Source: Fimicolochytrium jonesii (lineage: Eukaryota). Taken from it: a DNA stretch of 64,000 nt. Of this stretch, positions 8,201 through 50,196 are shown piece after piece. The notes under the pieces were generated by a model. It was not told where the DNA came from, ran no database searches, and was given only the letters and a program-made list of their open reading frames with translations. The stretch covers positions 310,001 through 374,000 of the forward strand of contig NW_026515697.1 of assembly GCF_025526975.1 (NCBI RefSeq). The letters run 5' to 3'. Position 1 is the stretch's first letter, and every line of letters starts with the position of its first letter. A program made the translations under genes and the position numbers.

Positions 8201-8393
8201 TCGTGCTACCAAGACGTACCTAGTGGCCTATGCTCACCAACAAGGCACCAAAGGTTACTATGTCTGGGATCTAGTTCGCGACACTGTCGCCGTCTCACGT
8301 GACGTTCGTTTCGACAAATCTACTGGACTCCCTGAGCACCTTCGTCAAGATCCTGCTCTCCTAGATCTTCTAGAAGATGCTCCCACCTTGCAA

Positions 8394-8543
8394 GAGGAGT
8401 TCTTTATCGAACACATCCTTTCCGAAAGTCAACGCCGCGGCAAGAACGTCCAAAAGGAATACCTCGTCAAGTGGGTTGGTTTTACTACCCCTACCTGGCA
8501 ACCACGCTCTGATCTCATTGAGACTGAAGGATTGGATATCTGG
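8394..8543 (+). other. Chromodomain inside Co1 pol, between integrase and RT
   Basis: EEFFIEHILSESQRRGKNVQKEYLVKWVGFTTPTWQPRSDLIETEGLDIW. In frame with integrase and the start of RT in ORF 7962-9449; also present in the second copy at about 27365-27515 (-). Confidence 0.9.
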
Positions 8544-10242
8544 GAGTCTCGTCCAGACGCTTTCAATGCCCAAACCATTGAGGCCCTCTCGAACGCCTTC
8601 AACGCGCGTACCAAAGACACGCCTCAATCCGTCACTATGACCTGGCGACAAGCAATGACCTCCCCTCAATCAGCTGACTTCAAGCTCGCAGCTAATGAAG
8701 AGTTCCAAGCCCTAGTTGATAACGGGACTTGGGAGCTCATACCCCGTCCGCGAAATCAGCGCGTACTCGGTAGTACTTGGGTACTTCGTCAAATCTTCAA
8801 TCCGGACGGTACTTTCAAGAAATTCAAGGGCCGCGGCGTAGTTCAAAGTTTTCGTCTATCCAAGGGTATTGATTCTAACAACACCTACGCTCCAACCCTA
8901 CCCATGTCAGTTCTTCGCCTTTTCCTCTCCATAACCGTCTCTCTTGGTATGGAAATCCATCAACTCGACGTCCCCAACGCGTTCTTACGCAGCGATATCA
9001 ACGGACCCGTCTATGTTGAACAATTTTCAAGGCTACAAAGATCCGCAGAAACCGCGCGCAGACTGGGTATACCTCCTACCCAAAGCTCTATACGGTCTGA
9101 AGCAGTCTCCGCTTCTCTGGTACCGTACTCTTCGCGAAACCCTCAGTTCTCTCGGCTTTACCCCGTTAAAAACTGCCCTTGCGTCTTCTATTGCTACGCG
9201 ACCACGACGCGCACTCTGGACGCCCTCCAGATGTTCCTTATCTATGTGGACGATTTCATCGCCTGCTGCTTTCCCGTACACATCAAACAAGTGAAAGGTG
9301 AACTATGTTCTCATTTCAACTGTACAGATCTTGGTCCCATCAAGAACTGCCTGGGTCTAGTCTTCGATTACCAGCTCTCGCCGTCAGGGAACCAACTCAA
9401 AATCAGCAATGTTACCTATATTGACGGTTTACTCGAACGATTTGGATAACAAAACGCTACCCCGGTCTCTACGCCGTGCGCTGTCTCTGCGCGTACCCGA
9501 CCAGCCTCCGCAAGCCCCCCTTTTCATAGCAAACTTCTCTACCAGGAAGCAGTGGGGGCCCTCACGTGGGCATCCATTACCTGGCGCTGGGATATTTCAA
9601 CTGCCGTCGGCTTCGTCGCACGTCAAGTCTCAGCTCCTACTCAAGCCGACTGGAATGATGTACTTCGCATCATCCGCTACCTTAAAGGAACCCGCACCTT
9701 CGAGCTTACCTACAAGTCCGGTCATTCAGATCACGCTGGACTTCGCGTCTATACAGACGCCTCCTACGCAGACGATGTTAACGACCGCAAATCTACCGCG
9801 GGCATCGCCAGCTTCTTCAACGGCCAGCTTATCTACTGGAAAAGCACCAAGCAGAAGTGCGTAGCTCTCAGCTCCACGGAAGCTGAGTATATCGCCGCAT
9901 CCCTCGGTTACAACGAGGTCATCTGGCTCCGCTTGATCATCGCGGAGGTCTTCGGCGACGAATACGGCAACATCAAGGACCCCACGCCACACCACATCGA
10001 CAATCAGAGCGCCCGCAAGATTGCCAACTCCATGGCTATTACTCAGCGCTCCAAACACATCGACGTACGCTACCACAAGCTACGCAACGGCGTGGCGAAG
10101 AAAGACGTCGTACTCCTCGACACCGCGACGCAGGAACAACTGGCTGATTACTTTACAAAGCCCTTTCCTCCCAAAACACATACAAAGTTTATTCAAGCAA
10201 TTCAAGAAGGACGTGTCGCTAGCAATGGACAGCCGGCGACGA

Positions 10243-10905
10243 CTACGTCCGAATGAGACATACGGAACGCCCATACCGGGACGGCTTCAGGGCACTACAT
10301 ACGACTGCGGCTCCTCCTCCACCAGGCGGACCCCCTGGACCGCCTCCCCCGCCGTTTCCGTCACCGTCTCCATCCTCACTCGAAGACGAATCATCCATGT
10401 GCTTTCGCAAGTACTGGAGTCGCTTCACCATCTTGTCTCGCTCCCGACTCTCGACCGCATCACTGCGGCGCTTCGCCTCTTTCATCTTTTCTTTCGATAT
10501 GCCGCCTTTTGCCTTATATTGCGACTCCGAGACTGCCTTACGTCCAAGGTAGTCTGCCTCCTCCATCAATGCCTCGAACGACCCCTTCTTTCGCTTCGAT
10601 CGATCCAGTTTCGCCTTTGTAAACGCCAGGTGCTTCGCATGGTTCTCATGGTTATCCTTGCGGTACCTCAACATCGATACCTCCGTCGCCAATCGAAGAG
10701 CTTCTCTAACTCGGGCTTTCGACATCAAAGAGTCGCTTGCGGACGCTGCGGACGATGCGCGCGTAGAGCGCGTAGTCGGACGTGAGGGTCCCGGAGGAAT
10801 TGCAGCTGGAGGGGCTGCGGACGCTCCCGTCTTACGGGCCGTTTGCTTCTTCTTGCCGTCGCCGCTCTTCTTGCCACTCTCGCCGTTCTTGCCTCCGTTT
10901 GCCAT
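10243..10905 (-). CDS. Antisense accessory ORF of Co1 (220 aa; basic, helical, Ser/Gly/Pro-rich tail; function unknown)
   Basis: Uninterrupted ATG-started ORF between the pol end and the 3' LTR; aacaATGG start context; TATAAAA on the minus strand at 10999-11005. Confidence 0.6.
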   Translation of the reverse strand: MANGGKNGESGKKSGDGKKKQTARKTGASAAPPAAIPPGPSRPTTRSTRASSAASASDSLMSKARVREALRLATEVSMLRYRKDNHENHAKHLAFTKAKLDRSKRKKGSFEALMEEADYLGRKAVSESQYKAKGGISKEKMKEAKRRSDAVESRERDKMVKRLQYLRKHMDDSSSSEDGDGDGNGGGGGPGGPPGGGGAAVVCSALKPSRYGRSVCLIRT

Positions 10906-11168
10906 TGTTTCTCGTCTCGTGTGGTAGTCTGGGATACGGTAGCTGAGTATGGGGAATGTTGGTCTTACCTCTCTGGGGCGACTGACAGCTGTCTCTTGTT
11001 TTATACTCTTGGCGTTTCCCCCCTTCTTTCATTTTACTCTTTCATTTCTTTCATTTTAGTCATAGCTATTCACCCGACGTCCGCCCGCTTTTCGCGTACG
11101 GCCGCACCATTGTACTCATTGTTTAGATTTATCTTTCACTTAGATAGACTAGTGAGTTTGAGTGGGGG

Positions 11169-11413
11169 TGTTGGAGGTATCATCCTCCCGAGTTCCCGGT
11201 TAGGGTTCCCATAGTTTATTTCCTCACGTGACTCCCATCCCGCTTACGCTACGCTTCCGCGTACGGGACTTCCCTCTTTTCTTCCCTTTCGGACCTCGCG
11301 TCCTCTTTACACTTCAGACTTTTCTACACAAGATAATACATACTTCACAGTACTACATCACACAACATAGAGTTCGCTCAGTCATCTGCTTCCTCTGCCG
11401 ACTACTGCTAAGT
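11169..11413 (+). repeat. Co1 3' LTR
   Basis: Direct repeat of 4965-5209, preceded by the PPT. Confidence 0.95.
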
Positions 11414-11555: not shown

Positions 11556-11890
11556 ACTAAAGAAGTTCGTTGGCTCAATGGTTGCGTACATCCATTGCCC
11601 GACAACTTGTATTAGGCAAGGTGCGATACAGCACACCCGTTGCATTCACAGCTGGGACACCCGCTGCCGGTAGCATGTGGCGTGGATGGCAAACACCATT
11701 GAATGAGAATGGTGTGCAAGCGTCACTACCCACGACGGTCTTCTGGAAAGCTTTCCTGAATGACACACTATTCTGACGTCGAGTTGGCAAACCATGGCTT
11801 TCAGCGAAAAAGCCATGGCTTTTTGCATGGTTATTTGGACTGACAACGACAAGTACAGTAAGGATTGCGCTGGGTGCGATCCCGGGACCC
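11556..11890 (+). mobile_element. Fragment of the Gy4 3' region
   Basis: Reverse-complement similarity to about 25895-26225 and 50570-50830. Confidence 0.8.
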
Positions 11891-25491: not shown

Positions 25492-27281
25492 TGTGATGTG
25501 GACTACCTTCCACACGGGTTGTATAACAGATGTCCGTATACAATAACTACTTTGCTGTAAGGTATTGTAGACGGACTGGGTGTTCGTCGGCTCTGCTATG
25601 CGATATGTAGTAAAAGAACTACTTGTTGTGCATAGGAACGTGCGACAAGCACTGTTAAAGTACCCATGAGGTCGGAGTCCACTGGAGAACACTGTCTGCA
25701 AAGACCTTTCCTTGGACAGCGAAAGGTCTTTCGCTGATCTCGGGAACATGTTTCACTTAGACAGCGATACATGTTCCGCTGACATGTCATTCTCCACCGG
25801 ACACTCCACATTACACCCCCCCCCTCCCCCCCCCCCCCCCAGATTCTACGACACGAACCTGCCCAGCAAGCTCAAGCAGAGTAGAATATGAAGGTGTGCG
25901 GGATCGCACCCAGCGCAATCCTTCCTGGTCCTTGTCGTCGTCAGTCCAAATAACCAAAGTTGTGCAGCGAATACCCATGGTTATGCAGCAAAGTAACCAT
26001 GGTTCTGCAACTGGAGTAGTGTGGCGTTCAGGAAAGCTTTCTAGAAGACCGTCCTGGGTAGCGACGCTTGCAAACCATTCTAAATTAATGGTATTTGCCA
26101 TCCACGCTACGTGCTACCGGCAGCGGATATCCCAGCGGTGAATGCAACAGGTGTGCTTTGTATCGCACGTTGCCTAATAGAAGTTGTCGGGCAATGGATG
26201 TACACAACCATCGAGCCAACGAAGCTCTGTCGTTCAGAGTCAACGCCTATGTGTATCTCCGGGCATACACACCATTGAGTCTTCAGGAGTGATCAGTTCC
26301 TGCTTACTCATTATGGACGGCAGCCGTAAACGCATTTACCCTATGCGGATGCCGTTTACCATCAAGGGGTCGTGTTAACACTCGTTTTGTGTAGCACGTT
26401 GCAATCCCTTTCACAGCTTTGACTTATGTCCAAAGATATCGTGAACGAGAACTTCTCTACTCGATTACAACGATATCCGATGTTTTATTGGACAGAAGGT
26501 CCCCTCCGGCTACAGATCATTCATGGCCTCCAGCGAACCGTGCACTCATGCGTCGCAGAGCCTCAGGTCCCTTAGAGCGCTTCCGCTTTCGCTTATCTGA
26601 ATTCTACTTCACCATGGACCAAGATGAAGTCATCTAACGCAGCGCAGTCTTTCACTCGCTCATGCGTTTCCCATGTCGTCTGCTCAGATGGGTAACCAAC
26701 TCACTGAACGAGATACTCAGGTTTTCCATGGACCAACCTACGTCCGATAATCTTATCGACATAGTATTCTTCCTTGCCTTCGACCTGGACGCGCCCTGGG
26801 TTAAAGTCCTCTACATCGTCGATGCGCAGCGGATCTGAGGTCGGCTCGTGCCATGGCTTCAAGATATCCGTATGGAAGACCGGATAGAGAGCGCCCATCA
26901 AAGCTGGCAGCTCTAACTCGTACGTTTCCGGGTGTGGTCCTTCCTTCTTCACAATGAAGGGTCCCGGCCAGCTCTGTCTAAACTTGAGCGGCTTCTTATT
27001 GAAAGCAGGGATCGTTATCCCGTCGCTGTTCAACAGGACTTTATCTCCTGGACGAAAGCTCTGTACACAACGTCCACGATCGTGATACTTTGCTTGTTTG
27101 TCCTGGGCTTCCCGCAGTTTCTGCTGCACTATGAGTTCAATGGATCGGTATGCCTCAGCACGCTTCTCCATCTGTTTGCTGAGCTCACGTCGTGACTTAT
27201 GCAAGAATGGGATCGACGTATCGCCCATACGTTGCAACACCTTTGCGTCAACTTGCCAATGCATTGGCGCCTGCGGAATTC
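25492..27281 (-). mobile_element. Gy4 3' part: integrase tail, chromodomain, about 820-nt 3' region, poly-G PPT and 3' LTR (25492-25815)
   Basis: WPGPF..VFHTDILKPW..EEYYVDKIIGRR..EYLVQ. LTR bounded by the inverted termini TGTGATGTGG/CCACATTACA and repeated at 50197-50504. Confidence 0.88.
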
Positions 27282-28783
27282 TGAGGCGTGTCTTCGGTGC
27301 GCGCGTTGAAGGCGTTCGAGAGGGCTTCAATGGTTCGGGCGTTGAAAGCGTCTGGACGAGACTCCCAGATATCCAACGCTTCAGTCTCAATGAGTTCAGA
27401 GCGTGGTTGCCAGGTAGGGGTAGTAAAACCAACCCACTTGACAAGGTATTCCTTTTGGACGTTCTTGCCGCGGCGTTGACTTTCGGAAAGGATGTGTTCG
27501 ATAGGGATCTTCTCTTGCGAGGTGGGAGCATCTTCTAGAAGATCTAGGAGAGCAGGATCTTGACAAAGGTGCTCAGGGAGTCCAGTAGATTCTTCGAAAC
27601 AAACGTCACGTGAGACGGCGACAGTGACGCGTACTGGATCCCAGACATAGTAACCTTTGGTGCCTTGTTGGCCTACTAGGTACGTCTTGGTAGCACGATT
27701 TGCCATCCTGTCCCGGCCCTTGGGTGGAACAACAGTATACGTGAGGCATCCGAGCTTGCGCAGATGCGCGATGCTCGGGCAGCGACCGGTAAGGAATTTG
27801 GAGCGCGATTTGGCGTCCAAGGATGCAACTGAATGCGGGTAGAGGTTGTGTAGGTAAGACAAAGCCTTCAGGATGTACGGCCAGAGCCTGCGGGGAAGGT
27901 GAGTGTCCGCGAAGATGGCGCGTACGCGGTCCAGCAACGTCCGATTGAGGCGCTCTGCTTTTCCGTTTTGTTGACTAGAATACGCGACAGTAGACTCATG
28001 GGTAATCCCATTGTTGTGTGAATACGACGTGAGCGCGCAGTGTATTCCCCTCCCCTATCCGTACGTAGGATCTTGAGGGAGACGCCAGTTTGATTCTTGA
28101 GCCACTTATGAAAGATCATAAACCTTGCGGTAATAGTGGATGCCTCCTTGTCCTTGATGGAGTAGGTATGGGCGAAATTGGAGCCGTCGTCGAGGAACGC
28201 GCGACTGTAGCGCTCTCCGTCCATGTCATGGATCCAAAATGGACCTTGTAAATCGCTGTGAATCAGCTCGCCGGGTTTGTGTGGCGGGGATGTCGATTTA
28301 GGGAAGGTAAGGCGGGTAGCTTTGCGGAGATGTAATAATGCTAGGTCCGTTGCCAGTGGCTAGCTCTGTCTCCGCTCGATGTATTGAAAGAATTCTAGAG
28401 TTTCTACCTTCCGGGGCGCCGCCCGAAGGCTTTTCTTCCCTTCGGGAGTCACCCCAGAGCGTAGAACTCCAATATAATCTACGCTACACGTGATCTCATG
28501 CCCTACGCGCTTCCCCGCACTAAGGTGACACCTGCAGCACCTCATTACACCCCCCTTAGAGCCAAGTGTCACTCCGACACCGACCCCACCTGTCAGTCGC
28601 TCCCCGCTGTCACTTGATGTGGAGCTGACACAGGTGTCGGCCATGAGGAGTGCGCATGGCTCTGCTGGAGCGGCTGGCGTCACCGGTGGTCACCACGGTG
28701 GCAATCAGATCCACGCCGAAATGAGGTAGAGATGATTTGGCCGCAGCTGGTCGTGGGGCGCTATAGTCCTTGTCCCTGCGGCA

Positions 28784-28790
28784 TATAAAA
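28784..28790 (+). promoter_or_regulatory. TATA box of the antisense RING gene
   Basis: GCATATAAAAGG in GC-rich context, 108 nt upstream of the ATG at 28892. Confidence 0.6.
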
Positions 28791-28891
28791 GGAAGGCAGT
28801 AGTCCCCTCGGCACCTTTCCGCCAGTCCCCGGACTTACAATTCTTGCTCCCAATCTTGTAACCTCTCACCGTCGCCGTTCTCCTCATCACT

Positions 28892-29649
28892 ATGGCCAGC
28901 GTAGCTCCTCCTGCCAAGCCCACTGCTGCCGGCCCGTCATCGGGCAAGAAGAAAGTAGGCGATGGCCCCACTAAAGGGGACAGTCTGAAGAAGGCTCTCA
29001 GCGACAGCAAGTGGGGAGTCCACGGAGGTTGCCCAATTGACCGAACTTACGTGGTTTGACCAATTCTATCCCAGGACACCCCCAAGGTGCACTCGGACAG
29101 TACCCCGGGGCCCCCGGCTCCACCGGCCCGTCTTACGTGTTGGAACTGCAACACGTACCGCCCCCGCAAGATGTTCCTCTTGGCGTGCCAGCACATTATA
29201 TGCTGGCCTTGCATACTCCCGCTCTGTGATGACACCGTAAGGAACCGCATGTCGTGGGTGGTTCCCGTGGGGTGACTGACAGCTCACGTCTCTTCCCGAC
29301 AGACCGACACGCCCGTTGGGGAGTTCACGTGTGGCTACGTGGACAGTTTCGGGGAGGAGTGTGAAGCGCCGCTCTTCTGCGAGGCGCTACCCTGCACCTG
29401 TGTGTGGCCCGACTGCGATTGTCTGGCCGAGGACGTGCGGGTCTTCCCCTGCCACCACATCCAGTGTATGGGGCATGTCCGCGCGTAAGTACAACAGTCG
29501 TGAATTTTTGACAGGTCCCGCCACTGACGTGACGCGCTCCCTCTAGCCAGATGAACGTCCAGCAGTTCGTCCCGCTGCGTTGTGGCATGGGGACCGCCTG
29601 CCACGGCTCACGTTGCCAATGGTCTTTCGCCAAACAGGCTGGTATTTAG
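28892..29649 (+). CDS. Spliced gene, predicted 169-aa tandem RING-like zinc-finger protein; exons 28892-28954, 29075-29236, 29303-29484, 29547-29649
   Basis: Introns GTAGGC..TTGAC..CCCAG (120 nt), GTAAGG..CTGAC..GACAG (66 nt), GTAAGT..CTGAC..TCTAG (62 nt). Splicing removes every stop and yields C-x2-C-x12-C-x-H-x2-C-x2-C-x17-C-x9-C, then C-x4-C-x11-C-x-H-x2-C-x2-H-x14-C-x5-C. The intron 1 donor is the least certain. Confidence 0.8.
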
Positions 29650-29736
29650 CCTGGCGTTGTCGTTCTTCTTTCTTGTATATATTTTGTTGAATTTGATCTC
29701 TTCGGAGCGTTTCCCTTTGGTACTTCATCGATCGTC

Positions 29737-29984
29737 CTGAGCCCTGGTGCCTCGCCCCCGCTTGCATCCTAGGCCTTAGTACATACCCGCCCGCATGAGC
29801 CCTGACACCTTGCTTGCCCGCTCGCATAGGCCCTGGTACCCTGTACCCGCCCGCATCCTAGGCCTTGGTATTGCATACCCGCCCGAATGAGCCCTGACAC
29901 CTCGCTTGCCCGCTCGCACAGGCCCTGGTACCTCGTACCCGCCCGCATCATAGGCCCTGGTACTACGTACCCGCCCGCATGAGT
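29737..29984. repeat. Degenerate tandem repeat, about 30-nt unit (GCCCTGGTAC..TACCCGCCCGCAT), about 8 copies
   Basis: Visible periodic CCCGCCCGCAT/CCCGCTCGCA and GGCCCTGG/GAGCCCTGA motifs. Confidence 0.85.
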
Positions 29985-30184
29985 CTGTGATGGTAATGAT
30001 CATTTCGGACAGTAGAAACTCTGTTTTGATGTATGTACAAGGTTCAGATACGTTTACGGCGACGAGAGACTGCCGCTCTCTCCTTTGCCTTGGTCTCCCA
30101 AGTCTCCTGGCGCTTGGCGGCTTGCTTTCGGACATATCACTTGTGGGCCGAGGTGTCACGGACGTGTCGGAGTGGCCCCCAGGT

Positions 30185-30735
30185 TGTTATGATCTCCACG
30201 ACTGAGGCGGAAGCAAAGTAGAGAAGACAAGGCGAGAGTGATAGGCGACAAGGGATTCCAATGGCGAAACAAGAAACAAGGACTAGAACAGGAGATGAGA
30301 AGAACTGGTGTTGATCTGCTGGGGAGGAAGGGAATGGACGAAGAGAGGCCGGCGATTTATAGGTAGACAACCCAGGAGATCAAAGGACAACAACAACAAG
30401 AGGGGACTGGGGGGGCGCCAGCTATGCTCCTAGAGCGGGCGTGGCGAGCGTAGAGAGCATTGCTAACAGCTGCCGGCTATGAAGAAGTGGTGGGGGATGT
30501 GGAGAAGCCGAGGGGGGATTAGCAAAATGATAGGAGAGAGGAGGAGCGGCGATATTGCGGGAGGATTGGCGAAATGAGAGGAGAGAGGGGAAGTGACATT
30601 GACATTGACATTGACACTGACATTGACACTGACATTGACACTGACATTGACATTGACATTGGTGTATGACATTGGCGGTTGACATTGGCGGCTGTCAGTA
30701 GGTAAGCTTATGGTATGGGCGCGTCGTCCATAACA
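30185..30735 (-). repeat. Gy1 solo LTR inserted in the Gy2 chromodomain
   Basis: Complete TG..CA LTR with perfect TSD CAGGT at 30180-30184 and 30736-30740. Removing it restores FLVKWAGYDVSQNTWGPLRHVRDT. Confidence 0.96.
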
Positions 30736-33700
30736 CAGGTGTTCTGGGACACGTCATAGCCGGCCCATTTGACCAGGAACATCTCGGTGTTGCCTACCCA
30801 CTTGGAGTCGAGGATGTCTTCAACTTGGTGTTCGAGTTTGCCGTTGACTTCCTCCGGGGGGGGTGGTGCGTCCACTTTTCGGTATGAGCTGTTCTCCGGA
30901 GGGTTGTACCTGCGTAGGATGTTGACGTGGAACACCGGCTGTAGTCTACTGAACTCATGGGAGAGCTCCAGCTCGTAGGTGTCCGGGTGGGGCCCTTTTC
31001 CGCTGACGGGGAAGGGCCCGATCCATAGCGCGGACAGCTTCTTGTTTCGGGCCAAGATACTCTTGATCTGGATGCCTTCGCGGTTCAGCAGGACCTGATC
31101 GCCTACTACAAACGCGTCCATATTCTTGTTCCTGTCGTAGTATCTTGCCTGCCTGTCCTGGGCCTCTCGGAGTCTGTGCTGAACGATGCGGCTCACCTCA
31201 GTCAGTTGCTGCATGCGCTCCTCAATGCACTTTCGATTGCCCTGTTTCAGTTGCGGTGTTGGGTCGCTGGTACCCCATTGGTCTGGTACCTTTGGGATGT
31301 ACCCGATGTCGATCTCGCACGGGGACATGCCCGTGAAGGTCTGGGGCGTCCTGTTGTAGTCGTACTCGAGGAGGCAAAGCATCTCGCGCCAGTTCGAGCC
31401 GGTGTAGTTCAGGTAGGGGACCATCATCTTCTTGATTGTCTTGATCACGTTCTTTGTCTTGCCGTCGGTCTGATGGTGGTGTGCCGACGAGAGTTCCTGC
31501 TCTACGCCGGCGCACTCCAGGAGGTGCTTCCAAAAGGCGCCGGTCCATTTGGTGTCCCGATCGCTGATGATCGTGTGGGGCATGCCCGTGATGCAGAAGG
31601 CCTGGTCGAATAATAGCTGGGCGAGTTCCTTTGCCGTCGCCTTGGCATGGGTCTCGGAGAGGATTACGCGGCTGAATAAGAGTCCACCAGGATGAGGACA
31701 GCTCCCTTGTCCATGACGGACTTGTCTCCCGCTTCCCCCCCCCCCCCCCCCCCCCCTTAGAGTTCGTCGTGGGGAAGTAGATGTCCAAGCCGACGCAACG
31801 CCAGCGCTCGTCGGGGACCGGAATGCTGCGTAGGAGCCCGAAGTTGGAAGCCTGCTTGCTGCGTTGGCAGTCGGGGAAAGTCCGGACGTACTGATGGACC
31901 TCACGCTCGAGGTGGGGCCAGTAGTAGAGCGCAAGGAGTTTGGCGACGGTGCGCTGGACACCCGAGTGGCCGCCGTTGGCCAGGGAGTCGTGATAGAACC
32001 TGAGGACGGGGCCCCGAAGGCCCTCGGGGACATAGCGGCGGCCATGGTACAAAATCAAGCCGCGGTCGTCGCGCGTGAGGCGGCGGGCAAAACCCAAAAG
32101 GGTAGAGGGGTCGTCGGGGTTTGTCGCGGTGGTCTGCAGGTGGGCGAGGGTGTCCTTGCAGAACTTGTCATCGTCGAGCGCAGTGAGCCACTCGGCGTCG
32201 GTAGGGAGGCGGCCGGTGATGTCCGGTAGAGGTGTCCCGGTGACAATGGAGAACACTTCGACCTTCCTCTGACAGCTTGCGCTCTTCAGGGCGAACAGCG
32301 GGGTGCGGCTGAGTATGTCGGCGATGTGATTGAACTCGCCGGGGAGGTATTCGATAGTGAAGTCGTAGTCCTGAAGAAACTCCACCCAGCCGGCCTGGGG
32401 CCGGGAGAGATGAGGCTGATTCTGGAGGTATATGAGGGATTTGTGGTCGACAAATGCACGGAATTGGCGACCGATGAGGTAGTGGCGGTTAGCGCGGATC
32501 ACTTTGACAAATGCGAGGAGCTCCTGTTCGTGCACGGGGTATCGGGTTTCGGCCGGAGCCATCTTGCGTGAGTACTAGGAGATGACGCGGAGGCGCGGAA
32601 GGTTATTGAGGCCCTTTTTCGTGGTGGGCAGTGGATTCGGCATGGGAAAGTTGCCGTCCGTGCCCTGACCAATCCAGGCCCCTACGGCGAAGCCCGACGC
32701 GTCAGAGAAGTCGTAGGGGAACTTATCGGGGTCGAAGAACGCCAGGCAACGGGGATCGGCTGCGCGCGCCTTGATGGTGTTGAATGCTGCTTGTTCCTCG
32801 GCGCCCCACTGCCACGGGCGGGTGCCGGATTGAAGGTTGGTCAGTGGGAGGGCTGTGTCAGCATAATGCGGAATGTATTCCTTGACATAGTTGACTAGCC
32901 CCATGAAGGAGAGGAGCTCGAGGGCGCTGGTGGGTTTGGGTCGAGCGCGGATAGCCTCGACCTTGGAAGGGGCGATGGAAAGGCCATCCTTACCGACCAT
33001 TTACCCGCAGAACTCGACCTGGTCCACTGCCCACTGACATTTGGACGGTTTCACGTGGAGGCGGTGAGCCGAGAGGGTCTTGAGCACTTCGGTGACATGC
33101 CCGGTGTGTGAGTCCATGTCAGGGCTGAAAATAAGGATGTCGTCAAGGTAAGAGATGAGGTATGAATCGTACTTGTCACCCAGGAGTTTGTTCGTGAGGC
33201 GTTGGAATGTCGCGGGCGCGTTCGTCAGCCCAAAGGGTAATACGTTGTACTGGAAGTGGCCGAAGCGCGTCCGGAAGGCAGTCTTCTCACGGTCTTCCTC
33301 CCGGATGAGAATGCAGTGGTAGGCATCGCGGATGTCGATAGCGGTGAAGACCTTCATGCCGACGAGGCAGTCCCAAAGCTTGTTGAGGTTCGGGAGGGGC
33401 GTGGCGTCCTTATGGGTCATCTTGTTGAAGGCCCGGTAGTTGATGCAGCAGCGGAGGCCACCGTCCTTCTTCGGGGCAAACAGCACAGGTGCCCCCCAGG
33501 GGCTCTTAGAGTGGGAGATGCACCCGCGGGATGATAGGCGCTCAAGTTGCTGCCGTAGCTCGTCGAGTTCATCGGGGGCCAAGTGGTGGAGTGGGAGCAT
33601 GACAGGCTTGGAGCCGAGCTTCAGATTGATGCTGAAGTTGTCGTTGCCGCGGTCCAGCGGGAGGCCGGTCTGTTTGGTGAAGAGGGTATCTGTAAACTGT

Positions 33701-36700
33701 TCCAACATCGGGCGAAGAGGGTGGTCGGCGGCGACCGATCTGAGGGGATCCTCCGGGGTGGTATCCGGAGGGGTGGCCGTTGCCTTTCGGTTCGTCAGGA
33801 ACGCACTTTTCTTCGCCTCGACCGTGCGAACGAAGTTAGCCTTGGCTTCGGCGACGTCCGCGAGGGCGTCGTCTGTGGCCAGGTCCACCTCCGTGTCCGT
33901 TCGTGAGACCCATGCGGTACAGACCTCGGTGGTTTTATCCCTCTTGATCGCTCGCTTGAATTGTTTGGCCGTGAGGAAGCCCCCCTCATTTAAGGCCGCG
34001 CGCTTTGGGTAGAAACGGCGGGGGCAAGGGCCCGTATGAGGTTCGAGTAACCGGGCCGCGCAAGCGCTGGGTTGTTGCCATCGGCGGGTGGTGGGTTTAG
34101 CTCGGAAAGTTAGTACGGTTGCGTTATCCTCAAATTGAAGCACCAGGAACCCGTTGTCGCGCCATAAGCGTATGAGGTCAAGGTCCAAGATGTAGGGTAG
34201 CCCTAGGATAACATCCGCGCGGATTGAGGCCACAACGAACGGGACCCGAGGGGTCTTATGAGGTATTTGTTCCTCCGTGAAGACGGACAGGTCGGCACAA
34301 ATCATCCGCGTGGCGCCGTATGATCCGGCTTTGTCACCCCAGCGACCTCGAGGGGCGTGGGACAGTCGTACGTGTTAAGATCATGGCGTTGGGCAAATGA
34401 GTCACTGATGAGCATGGTATTGCAACCAGTGTCTATGAGGATGCGACATAATATGCCGCCGACACGTCCATGGACCATGAACGTGTGCTTGTCAATGACG
34501 GGCCCGGGGCGGTATTCCGGAATGATGTCCTGCAGTCGGGGTCCGGTAGGTCCCTCGGGTTGTCTGGACGCTGAGGCGCTCGGGCGGTCAGGCCCTGGGG
34601 AGACAATCCTGACTGTCAACGGAGTATGCGGGGCTCGGGGGCTCCTCCGCGGCCGAATGGAACTCGTCGTTGTCATCGTCAAAGGCCTCGGCGGGCGCCG
34701 CCGAGATCTTGAGTCGGTCCGGGTTCTTAGGGCATGCTCGGGCGTAGTGGTCCTTGCTGCTGCAAGTTTGACATTCGCCTCGCTGAGTTTTCCTCTCCTT
34801 CCCAAGGGGTACTCGGTTGGAGTTGAAGGTGCGGGGCGTATTGCGCTTGTGGCGAGCCTGGGCCAAAGTGGCCGTTGCGGGTTGGATCTGTTTGCCGTCT
34901 TCCGAAATGCGGGCGATCCGTCGGCATAACCCCTGATGCTGAAGGCCCTCTGGGCGGCTTGCTGGAGGGTCTTGATGGAAATGTCTTCGTCCTCATTGCC
35001 CTGTTGTAGGATGAACTGGTAACACTGCTCACGGATGCAACGTCCGACCTGGTGGAAGGTCAGCCTGTTCAGGAAGTAGTCACGTTCCTGTTGTGCCGTG
35101 AGATGTTCCTTTTTGGGGAGGATAGCGATCTGTGTGGTCAGTGCGTTGAAGGCCGAAACGTAGTCTGACATGCTGTCTTTGAACTTCAGGGCGGCCAGTT
35201 TCGCCTCGACCAAGCTACGGAGGTTGGTGGGGTAGAACCTGCGCCTGAGTGCCTTCAGGAACCGTTCCCGGGTGGCGGGAGGCTCTCCGGAGCGAGCCTC
35301 GAGCTTCCACCGCTCAGCGGCGTCTCCCGACAAGTGGGCTACGAAGTGTTTCACGTCCCCGTCCTCCGTTCTGAATTCGGTGGCTTCCAGATAGCGTAGG
35401 TGGGCGTCAACGAACTCGTCCAGTTTGGCGACCATGTCTTTACCATTAGCCTTACCATTGAACTTGGTCAGCATCTTAGCCAAGGTGGTTCGGAACTCCT
35501 TCTCGGCGGCCGCCTTGCGCTTACGCTCTTCGCTAGCCGCCAAATGGGCCTCGCGGCTAACTCGTACTCCAGCGAAGGGGCTGTCATCTGGGCGGTCCCT
35601 CTCCAGGCGCTCGAATCGCTGCTGGAGTTGGGCGTTGGTGTTGGCCAGCTGGGCTAGGATTTGGAGGATTGTTGCCTGTCCGTTCTCCTGTTGGGCTGGG
35701 GTACGGCTCCTGCGCCGCATGGGGGAGCGGCTTCGGGTCCTTGCCGGGGAGCGGCTGCGGTAGCGGCTTGCTGAGCGGCTCCTTCGACGGGGGGGGAGAT
35801 GCTCCTGCGACCTCATCGTCCGCGCCTGTATCGCTCTGGCATCCGATTCCGGCGTCGGGGTTCCGGGCTTCGACGTCGACGAGATGAGCGTGAGCGGGAG
35901 TGCCTCCTTCCAGGTGGCGACCACGGGGGTGACCCCCTGCGCCTGTGCAAGGGGCGGTTACGCTCTGCGGGGCCGTTGCCTTGGCGTTGGTCGCCGTCGA
36001 GCCGTTGCGCCCTTCGATGCGGGTGTTCAAATGGGTCAAGCTCTAAGCGGTCATTGTTAACTACCGCATAGCTGACGGCGGTATTAGCACTCGCCTAAGA
36101 GTTGCTCATCGTAGGTTGCCGGAGAGATCTTGAAGGGTGGTGCTACCATGTAATAATGCTTGGTCCGTTGCCAGAGGCTAGCTCTGTCTCCGCTCGATGT
36201 ATTGAAAGAATTCTAGAGTTTCTACCTCCCGGGGCGCCGCCCGAAGGCTTTTCTTCCCTTCGGGAGTCACCCCAGAGCGTAGAACTCCAATATAATCTAC
36301 GCTACACGTGATCTCATGCCCTACGCGCTTCCCCGCACTAAGGTGCCACCTGCAGCACCTCATTACACGAGGGCGCATGGATTGCAGCGTGCGCCGGAGT
36401 CCGGCGTAGCCCCCACTGAAGGCCAATCCTCTACTATCTTAGGCATAACCGGGAGAATGTGGTTTCCAGGTTGTCCAAGACGTTGATGCAGAAGTTGGGG
36501 GGTTCTTGAGAAGGAGTAAGTCTATCGTCGTACTGAGCCTGAGCAGTGATCAGGGTACTAAGATCCTCAGGAAGGGCTTGAAGGAAGTCGGCACAGAGCA
36601 CATATTCCGGGAGCCCGGGGAGTTGTCCAGCCAAAAGGTTGAACTGGGCAACAAATTTGGTTAAACCTTGATGGTTAATTGACTTGGGCTTCAGAGCGCG

Positions 36701-38207
36701 CAGTCTGTGAAGAACTTGCGGCGGATGAGTCCGGTGAATGAAGCGCCTCAACATCGCGGAGCGTAATCCGAGTTGCGGGGGCTGTCCATAGGCGTCTTGA
36801 ATATCGTGGCATGAAATTATGGAGAAGCGCCGTTTTCAGGCAGGCTTTTCCACCACTGGAGAGCTGGTCCAGTGAGCGCGTTGACGACAAAGTCTACGCA
36901 TTCGGAAGGCAAAATCATCTGGTACTTCATAATCACGTCGATGTGATCAAGGAACCCTTGAAGCTTGGTAACATTGGGGTCGCCGTTGTAGGTGCTGAGT
37001 TTACTAAGGGTAGTGTTGATGAAGACTTTGGAAGCTGATTTGCCGGCCGTACGGGGTGTTACAGGAGTAACAGGTCTCACAGATGCACTTTCGTGTGGAA
37101 TTTCAGCGAAAGGAGGGCTTTGAGAACGGGTTTGAAAGTAAGGATGCCGTTCCGGGGCTTTATAAGCATATGGGACGGAGTAGGCCATAGCGCGCTGAGG
37201 AGGCGCATGGGGTGCCGGCGACACAGAGGTCATATATGGCACATTTCCCTGGACAGGGCTAGTCGAATATTGAGATCGAGTGCTGTTCACAGGCAACTGA
37301 GCGAGCGGGTTCACGGAGGGGACGGTAGGTCCGCCTTGTTGTGGCACTCGACCCGAATTCAAGAATGAGGTAACCAATCCAGTCAGGGTGGCTATTTGAT
37401 CCTTCATTTGAAGCATCTCCTCTTCCTGCTTGACAGACATAGGTTCTTTCTGAATGGAATCCATCAGGAAGGGGTCGGTCCGCGTGATTCAGGCGCATCC
37501 ACATACGGCGTGGTTGCGTCTTTCCATTCTGCGATAGTAGCAGAAAGTCCCTCCTTCCTCTTCTTCTGGTCCACAAATCCACCAGGCATTTTGTAAGGCG
37601 GGGTAGGTGTTGGTTCACTGCGTAAGTCGGCATGACGGGCTACGCCTTGATTAAGCGGAGTACGTGAGTCAATGCCAGAGCGCTGATTAATAGATTCAGG
37701 ACTCTTAACAGGGGGTTGTTCAACTTTCTTTCCTCCTCCTCTAGTAGCCGCAGGTAGTGGGCCCAGGAGAGCTCCTCCTTGGGACCGCGTAGGCTGAGCA
37801 GAGGGCTTGCCGGCTGTCACTGCAGCTGCGTAGCCCTTCTGAGGTTGGGTTGTTGAATCTTTAGGTGGCCTGGTGCTTTACTAAGAGAGCGGTGACTGGA
37901 GACCGTGAGTTCTTTATCCTGGAACGTCCGCTAGTTGCGGGCGAAGCCAGGGCTCATAACCACTTAGCAGTAGTCGGCAGAGGAAGCAGATGACTGAGCG
38001 ATCTCTATGTAGTGTGCAATGCTGTACTGTGAAGTATGTAGTGTCTTGTGCAGAAAAGTCTGAAGTGTAAAGAGGACGCGAGGTCCGAAGGGGAAGAAAA
38101 GAGTGGAGTCCCTACGTGGAAGCGTGGCGTAAGCGGGAGGGGAGTCAAGTGAGGAAATAAACTACGGGCACCCTAACCGGGGACTTGGGAGGATGATACC
38201 TCCAACA

Positions 38208-43363: not shown

Positions 43364-44371
43364 AGAATGGCTCCAGGACTACAAGACGCTGGAAACCGAG
43401 ATCCAGGTCCAGCTTGCTGACAGCCGGTCAGTCCTAGCCATCGGAACAGGCTCCATCTCGATCAGAACGCCCGGGGAGCACGCTGGCACCCTTCAAAACG
43501 TCTGGTTCGTTCCCAAACTCGAAGAGAACCTCATCTCAGTAGCCCAGCTGACTGAGAACGGAGCACAGGTCGAGTTCTCGAGTGCAGAGTGCACAACCAA
43601 GACCAATGACGGTGATCTCACCTTCAGAGCTCTCAAGGAGAACGGTCTGTACACCATGACAGCCGAGGTTTTCCCTGAACATGCGTACTCAGCAGGAGCA
43701 CTTTGTAGCACACCCTTTCATATCTGGCATCAGAGACTCGGTCATCTGAATACCCAAGACATCCAGAAGCTCACCAACGGCTACCAACGTCACATCAGAG
43801 TCACCGGACATCCTGATGGCCACATCTGCGAAGTCTGCTCGCTCTCCAAGCAGTCCAGAGCTCTTTTCCCGAAGAAAAAAGCTTCCCGAGCCACAGACGT
43901 CCTGGCACTCGTCCACACTGATCTCTGTGGCCCCAAGGGGATGTCTACCTTTTGGGGATGTACCTACTTCGCATCAAGGATTGATGCCAAGTCCAGAATC
44001 GTCTGGGTCAACCTCCTGCGCAAGAAAAGCGATACCTTTGATGCCTGGGAGGAATACAAGGCTCTTATGGAGAAACAGACCGGGAGATCAATCAAAGTCC
44101 TCAGATCGGACAAAGGAGGCGAATACAAATCCATCCAATTCGCCCTTGCACTCAGAAAGACTAGAATCCAACCCCAGCGCGCTGCTACCGACACCCCACA
44201 GCGAAGCGGAGTAGCGGAACATATGAATCGAACTCTGGTCGAATTGGCACGCTGCCTGCTCACCCAGGCTGGTCTCGGACAGGAATACTGGGGAGAAGCT
44301 CTGCTTGCAGCTGTCCACATTTGAAATCATTGCCCTACGGCTGCCCTAGACAACTTCAAGACGCCGTATGA
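43364..44371 (+). mobile_element. Co2 fragment: protease end, GAG-pre-integrase and integrase core
   Basis: WHQRLGH..CEVC, VHTDLCGP, LRSDKGGEY; matches 46143-47150. Confidence 0.92.
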
Positions 44372-47300
44372 TATTGAGATAGCATCAAGATGCGGCACTT
44401 AGAAGGCTCTGCAAGACTTGGGACGCGTCTGGGGAGGCTCTGAAGATGTCTGGACCGTTTCCCAGACATCCAGGCATCAGCACTGCGCTTTCATGATGTT
44501 CTTAGAGCTCATGGCGGTCAGTAGTGCCCGTATGGAGCTGTGATCGGGTTGTAGTAGCTAGATTGGGTTTTATTGAGCTTGTGGAAGCCTGTAGCACCTT
44601 CCGCGGGCTCCGCGGACTTGGCAGACGTCCATGGGGGCATCAGCAGGCTACACAGACTTGGCAAAACCTGACCAACCTTAACTGGGGCACTCAGAGACGC
44701 CTTGGGCGTTCTGAAGGGGTCTCAGAGGGTGCTTTGGACGCACCAGCACATAGCTAAATCCCCAAGAAAGAAGCCCTAGATCCGTATAAAAGGCAGACCT
44801 GTTGCCCATCCCCTGTCTTCGATTTATCCTCTTCAATACACTATGTTCCACATCACAACACTGCCCTTTGGGCAGCTATGTCCCTCAGTCATCGGCGAAC
44901 CAGTCTTAGTGACCTCCGAGATACACCTATATCAGCTAAGGTTCAGTACGTTATGAGCCCTGAGCTTTATCATCACTAAAACGGTGTTCGCCAATCCCAT
45001 TCAAGACGTTTCCAACCCCCGACGGACGCTCCCTACGCCCTACTCTCGACAAATCCCTCCAAAACCACGAATTTCCGACCGAAAAACGCGCCAAAGTGCT
45101 CAACTCGACAAGATACGCACTGCTTGACACCCAAAACGCGTCCAACAATACAGCATCATCCAAAAAACGCGTCCACACACCCGAAACAGACGACTTTAGC
45201 TCGAACACTCAATGGCTGGAGACTCAGAGACTTCGAAACTTATGGTGGATAAGTTCACAGGGGAGAACTATCATCTATGGAAGTTTAGGATGATGATGAT
45301 GTTGAAGGGGAAGGGACTTTGGGTGGCAGTGGAAGCTGGGACAAAGGAGAAGGAAGGAGCTACGGCTACAGCAAGCTCGTCGCAGGGAAAGGGGGCAGAA
45401 GGGGAAGAGGAGGAGTTGATGGAGAGGAAGGACAAGAGGGCTTTAACATACATCTGCCTCAGTCTGAACAACACGCAGCTTATGCATGTGCATACAGCTC
45501 AGACGGCTTGGGAAGCCTGGTCTAAGCTAGCTGTGGTGCACAAACGAACGGGGCTCGCCAGCAAGCTCTTCCTTTGTCGAAAGTTCCTTACCATCACTAT
45601 GGACGAGTCTGACTCGATCACAAACCACATCAACAATGTCAGACAGCTTGCACAACAGCTGGAGGCTATCGGCGCACCAGTACCCGAAGACGATATCATG
45701 ACGACCTTGATATACAGCTTACCAAACAGCTACAAACAAGTCATCACGAGCCTCGAAAGCAGGGCAGATGACTTAGACGTGGAGTTCTTGACGGCCAGAC
45801 TTCTGAATGAAGAGCTAGGCGCAAGGAGAACTCGAAACCAGTCAGATCGACTGGAAACGCCTTCGTTGGGGACGGGGGACACCAGCAGGAGGCTGGGGGT
45901 TCAGCCAGGTTCGCCAGGAAGAAGGGAAAGTGCCATCGCTGTGGTATTGATGGGCACTGGAAGAATGAGTGCAAGAAGCTCAAACGAGAGCTAGCACAAG
46001 CCAACAATGCAAATCGAGCCAAACCACACCAGGCCAGCCAGGGAACCGGGTTCCTCTTCATGGCAGCTATGAAACGCACGGAAGTCAGCCCAGGGTGCTG
46101 GATTATCGACTCAGGAGCCTCCTCACACATGACACACGTCAGGGAATGGCTCCAGGACTACAAGACGCTGGAAACTGAGATTCAAGTCCAGCTAGCTGAT
46201 AACCGGTCAGTCCTAGCCATCGGAACAGGCTCCATCTCGATTAGAACACAAGGAAAGCACGCTGGCACCCTTTGAAACGTCTGGTTTGTTCCCAATCTGG
46301 AAAAGAACCTCATCTCAGTAGCCCAGCTGACTGAGAACGGAGCACAAGTTGAGTTTTCGAGTGCAGAATGCACAATCAAGACCAGGGACGGCGCTCTCGC
46401 CTTCAGAGCTCTCAAGGACAACGGCCTGTACACCATGACAGCCCAGGCTACCCCTGAACACGCCTACTCAGCAGGAGCACCTCGTAGCACACCCTTTCAT
46501 ATCTGGCATCAGAGACTCGGGCATCTGAATGCCCAAGACGTCCAGAAGCTCACCAACGGCTACCAACGCAACATCAGAGTCACCGGGCACCCTGATGGCC
46601 ACATCTGCGAAGTCTGCGCGCTCTCCAAGCAATTCAGAGCTCCCTTTCCAAAGAAACAAGCTGCCAGAGCCACAGAAGTACTGGCACTCGTCCACACTGA
46701 CCTCTGTGGCCCCATGAGGACGTCTAACTTTGGGGGATGTACTTACTTCGCATCATGGATTGATGACAAGTCCAGAATCATCTGGGTCAAGCTCCTACGC
46801 AAGAAAAGCGATACCTTTAATGCATGGGAGGATTACAAGGCACTTATGGAGAAACAGACTGGGAAATCCATCAAAGTCCTCAGATCAGACAAAGGAGGCG
46901 AATACGAATCCCTCCAGTTCGCCCTCGCACTCAGAAAGGCTGGAATCCAACATCAGCGCGCTGCTACCGACACCCGACAGCAGAACGGAGTAGCGGAACG
47001 TATGAATCGGACTTTAGTTGAAATGGCACGCTGCCTACTCACCCAGGCTGGTCATGGACACGAGTACTGGGGAGAACCGCTGCTTGCAGCTGTCCACATT
47101 AGAAATCGCTGCCCTACGGTTGCCCTAGACAACTCCAAGACGCCATACGAAGCCTTCTTTGGTCGCAAACCCATCCTCCTTCATCTCAGAGTATTTGGAT
47201 GCATAGCCTATGCTATGGTACTCAAGAAAAACCGAGGAAAACTGGACAACAAAGCCAAGAAGTGCCTCTTTCTAGGCTATAGCTCTTCCAGCAAAGCCTG

Positions 47301-49157
47301 GAGGCTCCAGTCACTCGAACCCGATGATCAGGGCGCCATTATCGAATCAAGAGACGTCCAGTTCAATGAAAACAAGTTCTACAACAGCCTGGACAACGAA
47401 GATACACATGAAGACACGTCAGACCGCTCCTATGACAGCTTAGCTAGCTTTGAATTCGATCCTGAGCCTGACAACATCGTTTCACACGCACCCAAGCCCA
47501 CAGACACCCCCGAATTACGCCCGCACGCTGCAGGGGAGGATTCTGAGCTCCGTGACGCATCTCGCAACCCACAACCTGACACCGATCAATGGGCAGAGGC
47601 CCCAGAGGACCTAGACGACCAGGAAGACCAGGAAGATGACGACTAGGTGCACTACGGACGCATCACACGCTCCCAGAGCACTCAAATACGCCAAAGCAAC
47701 CTTGCCTATGCCCTGGCTACCGAAGTACTGCACACAGAGCCCAAAACCCTCAAGCAAGCCCTAAACTCCAATGACTCAGCCAAGTGGAAGGAAGCCGTGG
47801 ATGCTGGATACGCATGTCTTGTCAAGAACGGCACCTGGGAGCTCTGTCCAGCACCCAAAGATCGCAACCTTGTCGGATGCAAGTGGATTCACAGGATCAA
47901 GACGAATGCTGATGGCAGTATCGAACGCTACAAGGCCAGACTAGTCGCCCAAGGCTTCTCACAAGAAGAGGGACTTGACTACAACGAGACATTCGCACCA
48001 GTGGCCAAGTTCGACACCATTTGGCTACTCCTGTTGTGGGGAGCAGCTCAGGACCTCGAAATGGACCAAATGGACATGTCCACCGCATTCCTGAACCCGA
48101 CACTCAGTGAGGAGATCTATATGAAGCAGCCACCGGGCTGCATCAAGCCAGGAGAAGAGCATCTCGTGCTTAAACTCAAGAAGACACTCTATGGTCTTAA
48201 ACAAGCCCCCAGGGAATGGAACATCGAAATCCATGGCACTCTCGTTGAGAAAGGCTTCACTCGTCTTGATTCAGACCATTGCGTCTATATCAGGTTCTTT
48301 GAGGACTGGCTACTCATCCTGATCCTTTATGTGGACGATCTCATACTTTTGAGCAACAAGAGACTCGATCTTGACAGCTTCAAGGCCAAGGAACTTCAGA
48401 AGGCGTACGAAATGCGTGATCTAGGTGCCCTGCACTACTTCCTGGGTCTCCTAGTCACTCGAGACCGAGCCAAACGACTCCTGGCGCTCAACTAGACTGG
48501 GTACATTGGAAATGCCTTGAAACATATGGGATGACCGATTGCAAGCCTGTATCAACTCCCAGCGTCGTGGGAAGCCCTCTCACAAAGTCACAAGGGAAAT
48601 GGCACCTCAAACGCCTGAACAGACTGCAGAGATGCAGATCAAGCCCTATCGAGCCATTGTAGACAGTCTGATCTACGCAATGATCGGCACAAGACCAGAC
48701 ATAGCGCAACCAGTTGGAGCTGTGAGCTAGTTCTTCATCAATCCAGGCAAAGGACACCGGGCTATATCAAGATGACCAAACACCACCAACTTCGACTGGG
48801 AGCGGGCCAAGGAACCCCCAAACTCGTGGAATGGTCAGACTCAGACTGAGGAGGCTGCCCAGACACTCGAAGATCGACCACCAGATACCTCTTCACCTTC
48901 GGCGGTCCAGTAAGCTGGAAATCACGCAAACAACGCACTACAGCACTCTCCTCCAGCGAAGGCGAAAACATGGCACTCACTGACGCCTGTAAAGAAGCCA
49001 TGTGGCTCAGCCCTCTACTCAGAGAACTGAGCACGCACCAAGACAAGACAGAACTCGTCCAAACTCATCTTGAAAGACAACCAAGGAGCTATGGCACTCG
49101 CCACAAACCTAGTTCACCATGCACAAACCAAGCACATCGACATCAGATACCACTTAA
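44372..49157 (+). mobile_element. Co2 near-complete degenerate Copia lacking its 3' end (5' LTR 44372-44948)
   Basis: PBS (C)GTTATGAGCCC; gag KFTGENYHLWKFRM; CHRCGIDGHWKNEC; WIIDSGASSHM; integrase; RT YKARLVAQG/YVDD; RNase H up to KHIDIRYH. Confidence 0.95.
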
Positions 49158-49159
49158 TT

Positions 49160-50196
49160 GATGCCCCATGGGCGTCTGCCAAGTTGGCGGAAGGTGCTAC
49201 ACGCTACCACAAGCTCAGTCGAGCCCAATCTAGCTACTACACCGTGATCACAGCTCCATACGGGCACTGCTGACCGCTATGAGCTCTAAGAACATCATGA
49301 AAGCGCAGTGCTGACGCCTGGATGTCTGGGAAACGGTCCAGACATCTTCAGAGCCTCCCAAGACGCGTCCTAAGTCTTGCAGAGCCTTCTAAGTGCCGCA
49401 TCTTGATGCTGTTTTAATAGGCAGCAGCGCGCTGGTGTTGGATTCCAGCCTTTCTGAGGGCAAGGCCGAGTTTGGTAGATCCATATTCAGGTCCTTTGTC
49501 AGATCTGAGGACTTTGATTGACTTCCCGGTCTGCTTCTCTATAAGGGCCTTGTACTCTTCCCATGCATCAAAGGTGTCGCTTTTCTTGTTGAGGAGCTTG
49601 ACTTGTCATCTGGGGTTGTGGACTTCTGGACTTGTCATTGGTGAATGATGCAAAATAGGTGCAGCCCCCAAAGGTAGACGTCCTCATAGGCTCGCAGAGG
49701 TCAGCGTGGACGAGTGCCAGTACTTCTGTGGCTCGGGCAGCTTGTTTCTTCGGAAAGGGAGCTCTGGATTGCTTGGAGAGCGCGCAGACTTCGCAGATGT
49801 GGCCATCAGGGTGCCCGGTGACTCTGATGTTGCGTTGGTAGCAGTTGGTGAGCTTCTGAACATCTTGGGCATTCAGATGACCAAGTCTCTGATGCTAGAT
49901 ACGAAAAGGAGTGCTGCAAAGTGCTCCTGATGAGTGGGCGTGCGCAGTGATAGCTTGAGCCTTCATGGTGTAGAGACCATTCTCTTTGAAAGGTCTGAAA
50001 GTGAGAGCCCCATCTTTGGTCTTGATTGTGCACTCTGCACTCAAGAACTCGACTTGTGCTCCATTCTGAGCCCGCTGAGCTACTAAGATGAGGTTCTTTC
50101 TGAGTTAGGGAACGAACCAAACGTTTTGAAGGGTGTCAGCTTGCTCCCTGTGTGTTCTGATGGTAATGAAGCCCGTTCCGATGGCCAGAACTGACC
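49160..50196 (-). mobile_element. Co2 partial LTR (49160-49419) joined to a diverged Co2 protease/integrase fragment
   Basis: Reverse-complement matches to 44372-44640 and 46205-46965. Confidence 0.88.

Follow-up and report, generated by a model that had tools for sequence, protein, structure and literature searches.

A compact, predicted spliced gene that is very likely real lies antisense to gag-pol in the 3′ region of Gy2, a Gypsy chromovirus in the 64,000-nt stretch of DNA analyzed here (the window). Its signals, on the plus strand between the Gy2 pol end and its polypurine tract (PPT), are a TATA box, a start codon (ATG), and three introns of GT-AG type. "RING-like zinc protein" is a fair label for the predicted product, and we tentatively favor a ubiquitin-pathway role for it, possibly as a ligase or as a decoy that binds E2, with a chromatin or silencing factor as its target. 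The antisense placement is already known from other elements; the tandem RING-like cargo with introns is new within the literature searched, as far as our searches reach.

The Host Element Gy2

The whole window is a nest of retrotransposons. Gy2 is an 8-kb Gypsy chromovirus on the minus strand, inserted in a Copia-type host element and bounded by a 5′ LTR at 36149–36367 and a 3′ LTR at 28331–28549; the 3′ LTR (219 nt, TGTAAT...ATTACA) differs from the 5′ LTR at 4 of 219 positions, a divergence of 1.8%. A primer-binding-site-like sequence, TGGTAGCACCAC (36137–36148, minus strand), adjoins the 5′ LTR, and the PPT, AAGGGGGG (28550–28557, minus strand), abuts the 3′ LTR. The insertion target is TCTCG, and the flanks, CCTCG and TCTCC, each carry one mismatch against the empty site, which was taken from another copy of the Copia-type host element. 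Gy2 thus has the structure of a Ty3/Gypsy element (two TG...CA LTRs, primer-binding site, PPT, and 5-nt target duplication), and its domain order in Pfam, PR-RT-RH-INT with a C-terminal chromodomain, is that of a Ty3/Gypsy chromovirus; Chromo (PF00385) scored 30.6 bits against a cut-off of 25.1, and SH3_Tf2-1, Integrase_H2C2, RT_RNaseH, and RVT_1 likewise exceeded their cut-offs.

The gag-pol region (30736–35957, minus strand) spans Ty3 capsid, protease, RT, RNase H, integrase, SH3, and chromodomain, and it is broken, as a sequence-only reading of this DNA had held: in-frame stops lie at 33003 and 32577, the frame changes at a C22 run (31735–31756), and a solo LTR of a different Gypsy family (30185–30735, minus strand; 5-nt target duplication ACCTG) sits inside the chromodomain. 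A further frame change at the gag/pol junction may be programmed. The tail of pol past the chromodomain break (30044–30184, minus strand) contains a first in-frame stop at ~30137 and a second at ~30044, and between this pol end and the antisense gene is a tandem array (29741–29983) of 2.7 copies with a 92-nt period and ~31-nt subunits.

Six protein relatives of the Gy2 integrase were found, the best a metagenome protein (61% identity); the two that carry an organism name, at 54 and 50% identity, come from the chytrid Powellomyces hirtus. A search of viral contigs found none. With the short candidate introns of an ATPase-like region described below, these matches make a chytrid fungus the likely host. 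Within the window, a second Gy2 copy (53999–56645; 99.7% identical) comprises the 5′ part only and ends in the protease region, and the 3′ region with the antisense gene is present as a single copy. An inverted duplication pairs 52151–56645 with 33722–38207 and covers the 5′ parts of both the Copia-type element and Gy2; its Gy2 portion is 99.7% identical, and the nested Copia/Gy2 junction was therefore copied after insertion.

Model of the Antisense Gene

The TATA box (TATAAAA, 28784–28790, plus strand) is one of 12 TATAAA[AT] sites in the window, at least seven of which lie within LTR-type repeats. It is 108 nt upstream of the ATG at 28892, the sole ATG on the plus strand of 28781–28960, and puts the promoter ~230 nt inside the PPT, much like the promoter of a Copia antisense unit described below. 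Predicted exon 1 (28892–28954, plus strand as are all that follow; 63 nt) encodes 21 Pro/Ala- and Lys-rich residues, including a KKK cluster that is a possible nuclear localization signal, and may reach 29017. After predicted intron 1 (28955–29074; 120 nt, GTAGGC...TTGAC...CAG, with an in-frame TGA in the branch point), predicted exon 2 (29075–29236; 162 nt) encodes a Pro-rich linker and ligands 1–6 of a first putative zinc module. Predicted intron 2 (29237–29302; 66 nt, GTAAGG...CTGAC/CTCAC...CAG, with an in-frame TGA) precedes predicted exon 3 (29303–29484; 182 nt), with ligands 7–8 of module 1 and 1–6 of module 2, and predicted intron 3 (29485–29546; 62 nt, GTAAGT...CTGAC...TAG), which shifts the frame, precedes predicted exon 4 (29547–29649; 103 nt), with ligands 7–8 of module 2, the extra residues H155 and C159, and the stop codon. 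A T-rich region beyond (29650–29740; GC 0.42) is a probable 3′ UTR. The predicted spliced CDS of 510 nt encodes 169 residues, among them 18 Cys and 6 His, plus the stop, and retention of any one intron would truncate the frame at 55, 87, or 136 residues. All coordinates proposed earlier for the TATA box, ATG, and three GT-AG introns were recovered in the sequence, as was the stop-free frame of 169 residues, and each module is indeed completed across a splice junction, with ligands 1–6 in one exon and 7–8 in the next.

The donor of intron 1 is uncertain: with a weak in-frame alternative, GTCCAC at 29018, the intron would be 57 nt and the predicted N-terminus may be longer by 21 residues. The first 63 nt of intron 1 have a coding look, with a GC3 of 0.67 vs 0.42 in the remainder. 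The zinc modules are unchanged by the choice of donor. Alternative acceptors at 29550 and 29282 were rejected, the former truncating the frame at 136 residues and the latter shifting it. A two-intron model of 174 residues ending at 29546 passed the scan rules given below and was not preferred; it cannot complete module 2 because it stops before exon 4.

Sequencing run X1 yielded one 181-nt contig at this locus (29065–29245; depth 3, one difference), which reaches 9–10 letters into each flanking intron and, by a 31-letter rule, bridges no junction. The contig has T to C at 29204, turning the Trp66 codon, which lies between the fifth and sixth ligands of module 1, into Arg; with a single contig of depth 3, an error or a different copy could account for the change. 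Over 44001–64000, the same run gave only one unrelated piece, partly adapter-bearing.

Chance, Codon Composition, and Decay

Scan rules requiring an ATG, at least three introns (GT[AG][AG]G donor, branch point, and YAG), and at least 150 residues returned the antisense gene as the sole three-intron model on both strands of the window. Among 824 resampled windows, one model was returned without a TATA box and none with it, a null that is flattering because the rules were framed after the signals had been seen. None of 3,000 dinucleotide shuffles held the six-ligand motif or two C-x-H-x2-C-x2-[CH] motifs. The GC content of the antisense CDS is 0.58, 0.55, and 0.76 at first, second, and third codon positions; the GC3 excess was reached by 0 of 10,000 shuffles and the synonymous-codon score, a weaker test, by 67 of 10,000. 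The GC3 value compares with 0.68 in Gy2 gag and 0.79 in each of RT, RNase H, and integrase, and exceeds that of all six non-Gy2 ORFs tested (0.55–0.64); the match to Gy2 gag-pol suggests long residence in the Gy2 lineage. The surroundings of the antisense gene showed no conspicuous terminal inverted repeat or target duplication of the kind left by a nested insertion.

The sequence-only reading had also set an intact antisense ORF against a broken gag-pol, a contrast that turned out to be uninformative, because neutral decay at the LTR divergence of 1.8% predicts the same: the expected number of stops is 1.55 in gag-pol (two observed) and 0.17 in the antisense CDS, which would be intact by chance without selection with P = 0.84. 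Intactness through selection was rejected as an argument on this figure.

Two RING-Like Modules in the Predicted Protein

Eight ligands per module were assigned by the analyst's choice, with C72, C101, C106, C115, H126, H155, and C159 as spare Cys/His. Module 1 is C43-x2-C46-x12-C59-x-H61-x2-C64-x2-C67-x17-C85-x9-C95, and module 2 is C108-x4-C113-x11-C125-x-H127-x2-C130-x2-H133-x14-C148-x5-C154; ligands 3–6 of both have RING spacing (x1, x2, x2). The RING-HC consensus is C-x2-C-x(9-39)-C-x(1-3)-H-x(2-3)-C-x2-C-x(4-48)-C-x2-C, and widened variants exist. Ligands 1–6 of module 1 fit this consensus and its last pair is spaced x9, not x2, and module 2 has a first pair of x4, His as ligand 6, and a last pair of x5; the strict pattern is found in neither module.

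Pfam scans used exon pieces and intron read-through, and the RING matches cover only ligands 1–6 of module 1. Five families, all RING, matched the exon 2 piece, the best being zf-RING_5 (E = 3e-5; 24.3 bits, below the gathering cut-off of 27.9) and the other four weaker. Six of the seven PDB matches of this piece are RING proteins (five BRE1A/B and one PCGF5), and the RINGs of BRE1A/B are the top matches of module 1 (E = 0.021–0.048, the best, to BRE1B, over 30 residues). The module 2 piece had no RING match in Pfam, and its five PDB matches are C2H2-finger proteins, of which the best, ZAP1, is weak (E = 0.018). The earlier proposal of two RING-like modules was supported for module 1, and module 2 has RING spacing without a RING match. 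Recent duplication of one module from the other is unsupported, their mutual similarity (E = 0.16) not being significant, and a single-sequence AlphaFold2 model (no alignment) of the intron 2 read-through, at pLDDT 32, was uninformative.

RING surfaces that contact E2 have a hydrophobic residue in loop 1, a helix Trp/Leu, a Pro after ligand 7, and a basic linchpin. In module 1, an Asn separates the first two ligands, ligand 7 is followed by Gly rather than Pro, and ligand 8 by Glu rather than Arg/Lys; Leu71, at the helix position, is the sole fit. Module 2 likewise lacks the Pro after ligand 7 and a basic linchpin after ligand 8. Nor is the RING1-IBR-RING2 triad of RBR E3 ligases present, as there are two short modules in 169 residues and no IBR match in Pfam. 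From its sequence, the predicted product thus appears to fail two tests applied to the label "canonical RING E3." We consider a C3HC4 cross-brace RING likely for module 1, its last loop widened in a way that we take to resemble RBR RING1, and a diverged second RING possible for module 2.

Searches reaching close relatives found no homologue of exon 3 among longer proteins, none of the exon 2–3 read-through, and none of the antisense gene in metagenome contigs, viral contigs, or phages. In prokaryote genomes, one of 27 candidates (L011) aligned over 12 residues on intron-derived letters and was rejected as chance. An integrase alignment search, from which 10 loci of 229 candidates were fetched (25–33% identity), led to distant Gypsy loci with no RING-like motif and no tblastn match better than E = 1.4 among the 10.

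Relation to Known Antisense and Accessory Genes

Antisense ORFs between pol and the 3′ LTR (aORF-3R) are a described class, found in plants and in the fungal element Boty (PMC7264820), and include maize Grande gene23, rice RIRE2, Retand TRP28, and PvRetro13 (PMC7264820, PMC11963269). Most antisense ORFs of LTR retrotransposons are described as encoding proteins without a recognizable domain, their function being open (PMC7264820). The Gy2 gene, a predicted coding region between pol and the 3′ LTR and antisense to gag-pol, fits this class in its placement, and it is like the described members in position, orientation, a tandem array in the region, and a basic, possibly nuclear product; antisense ORFs are combined with tandem arrays in Retand elements (PMC11963269). 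The Grande antisense gene has its own internal promoter and a nuclear product (PMC7264820), and the counterpart of that promoter in the Gy2 gene is a predicted TATA box. The aORF-3R hosts compared here are plant elements, with Grande, RIRE2, and Retand in non-chromovirus lineages, unlike Gy2, and their products are TRP28, SMC-like, or unknown proteins; no RING is named among them in the available text. Additionally, the word "intron" is absent from the available text of the Retand paper (PMC11963269), whereas the Gy2 gene model has three. The antisense arrangement singled out by the sequence-only reading is real but less surprising than that reading implied, as the aORF-3R class as described includes fungi (PMC7264820). 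By its layout, the Gy2 gene may work like this known class of antisense accessory genes.

A closer counterpart by host and element type is Boty, a chromodomain Gypsy element with the antisense gene brtn (PMC4227169, PMC8365987, PMC5987419). Known from Botrytis and Sclerotinia, brtn resembles the Gy2 gene in its antisense orientation and 3′ placement within a fungal chromodomain Gypsy element; it differs, by the published descriptions on which this comparison rests, in its ascomycete host and in that BRTN has no stated function or RING. The brtn gene is reportedly multi-exon. In retroviruses, HTLV-1 hbz and HTLV-2/3/4 aph are antisense genes, hbz being spliced and accessory (PMC10186651). They are like the Gy2 gene in being spliced antisense genes in the 3′ part of an LTR retroelement and encode nuclear accessory proteins, but are described as driven by the 3′ LTR of a retrovirus, in contrast to the internal TATA box of Gy2, and as having bZIP or other folds, not RING.

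With RING E3 domains (C3HC4; BRE1/RNF20/40 nearest in the PDB), module 1 has the spacing of ligands 1–6 in common, whereas the Gy2 product differs in its sub-cut-off Pfam scores, in last pairs of x9 and x5 instead of x2, and in having no coiled coil, IBR, RING2, or substrate-binding domain. The planarian giant Gypsy elements Burro/GYPSM1 contain RING-annotated (AIR1) and ubiquitination-related domains, for which meddling with the host has been proposed (PMC6431247); as described, these sit in a sense polyprotein of 4,873 residues, whereas the RING-like motifs of Gy2 would be encoded by a separate, predicted spliced antisense gene. Capture of host domains as extra ORFs by LTR elements and anti-silencing by VANC have both been described (PMC9289625, PMC13547354), and VANC of MuDR/VANDAL is a transposon accessory factor with a proposed origin as a captured host chromatin protein (PMC13547354). 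The Gy2 product would be a functional analog only, the anti-silencing activity of VANC being established and that of Gy2 putative, and VANC belongs to a DNA transposon and, in the available text, has no RING or ubiquitin mechanism.

No comparable RING gene is present in the available text of PMC11728184, PMC10799480, PMC3248453, PMC5408684, or PMC2864245, and the literature searched, which consisted of main texts and included few subscription papers, yielded no RING-encoding antisense gene in an LTR retrotransposon. A supplementary listing of fungal elements with additional ORFs (PMC2864245) may be relevant to how new the Gy2 gene is.

Possible Function and Alternative Readings

From the position, signals, and open spliced frame present in the sequence as a starting step, the plus strand would be transcribed from the internal TATA promoter and the transcript spliced. 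The introns would survive copying because the genomic RNA carries them reversed, invisible to the spliceosome, as expected from established splicing logic for passage through reverse transcription; no intron signal of comparable kind was found on the minus strand of 28550–30200. The predicted product may be imported into the nucleus by its Lys cluster, would form zinc-bound RING-like folds, and most likely would bind an E2 or a host ligase. Acting as an E3 or as an E2-binding decoy, it could then ubiquitinate or titrate a chromatin or silencing factor, and the gene would likely be a long-resident accessory gene that acts in the nucleus to the benefit of Gy2. Both E3 activity and anti-silencing are putative, and H2B ubiquitination is one idea suggested by the statistically weak resemblance to BRE1.

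Two readings accept the gene and part with its proposed role. The product may be a zinc-binding nuclear regulator or scaffold with no ubiquitin chemistry, tuning Gy2 transcription or RNA handling like Grande GENE23, Retand TRP28, or HTLV-1 HBZ, which would fit the sub-threshold RING scores, the non-canonical E2-contact positions, the C2H2 fingers that are the best PDB matches of module 2, the spare Cys/His, and the nuclear regulatory roles proposed for described antisense products; however, every one of the five Pfam families matching module 1 is RING and the C-x-H-x2-C-x2-[CH] core is present twice, and we regard this reading as somewhat unlikely. Alternatively, a host RING gene could have been captured antisense, with its introns, by one Gy2 lineage, as a passenger useless to the element. 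The antisense gene is seen in a single copy, its short introns are similar to those of the host (~55–60-nt candidates in an ATPase gene), gene capture by LTR elements is documented, and neutral decay explains the intact frame; against capture, the codon composition fits Gy2 and not the neighboring ORFs, searches reaching close relatives found no cellular parent, and the compact promoter, ~230 nt inward of the PPT, has a position similar to that in the Copia unit. We consider such a passenger unlikely.

A coincidental run of splice-like signals and Cys-rich frames in non-coding 3′ sequence is a very improbable source of the model. Neither transcript, homologue, nor fold was obtained, and the scan rules were post hoc, as this explanation would have it, but the resampled windows gave the single model without a TATA box and none with one, the motif and GC3-excess shuffles gave none, and the scan, motif, and GC3 signals are largely independent. 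A ubiquitin-pathway role remains our tentative preference. Its most specific form, in which a chytrid chromovirus family encodes a spliced antisense tandem-RING ligase that alters or eliminates a chromatin factor of the host (by BRE1-like H2B ubiquitination, for example, or by destruction of a silencing protein) and so keeps a heterochromatin-targeting element expressed, is doubtful.

The RING-like motifs give an antisense accessory gene directly testable biochemistry, namely zinc binding, E2 binding, and ubiquitination. If the product were an active anti-silencing ligase, it would account for the continued activity of a chromodomain-targeted element in heterochromatin and have counterparts in the accessory ligases of viruses; the chytrid tandem-RING ligase, if true, would give an LTR retrotransposon an anti-silencing system that works through ubiquitin. 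No exon of the antisense gene is longer than 61 codons, and ORF-based transposon annotation misses such genes for that reason.

Other Features of the Window

The Copia-type element at 4965–11413 has an antisense unit in its 3′ region (10243–11005, minus strand), with a TATA box at 11005, an ATG at 10905, and an intronless Lys/Arg-rich ORF of 220 residues (10243–10905) that had no Pfam match. Its layout, TATA-ATG-ORF with a basic N-terminus, is parallel to that of the Gy2 gene, and antisense accessory genes may be a strategy common to Gypsy and Copia elements in this genome. Matches unusual for Copia were found in this Copia-type element (5294–9449, plus strand, and 27251–28054, minus strand): a chromodomain-like one inside pol, flanked by integrase SH3 and RT (E = 2e-4 to 9e-4, below cut-off), and a Ty3-capsid-like one in gag. 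Another chromovirus family, a second Gypsy family, is present through its ~800-nt 3′ region, in three diverged copies at 25825–26700, 50513–50910, and 11566–11884. One copy has an antisense open frame of 196 residues, but the region was rejected as a coding analog for want of a synonymous bias specific to that frame.

An ORF at 3905–4534 (plus strand) that adjoins an LTR of a third Gypsy family matched Dam (N6-adenine methyltransferase; E = 3e-5, below cut-off), and PF05869 was also found in a distant pol relative (P0005). At 60287–63272, a C5 DNA-methylase fragment (minus strand, E = 2e-5) lies head to head with an ORF that is long, apparently free of introns, and has C2H2 fingers, Cys-rich repeats, and, by eye, a C-terminal DEDD exonuclease look; this pair may be virus- or transposon-derived. 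A heavy-metal P-type ATPase-like region at 57500–60250 (minus strand) retains DKTGTLT and GDGSND motifs and is apparently interrupted, with candidate introns of ~55–60 nt near 58–60 kb.
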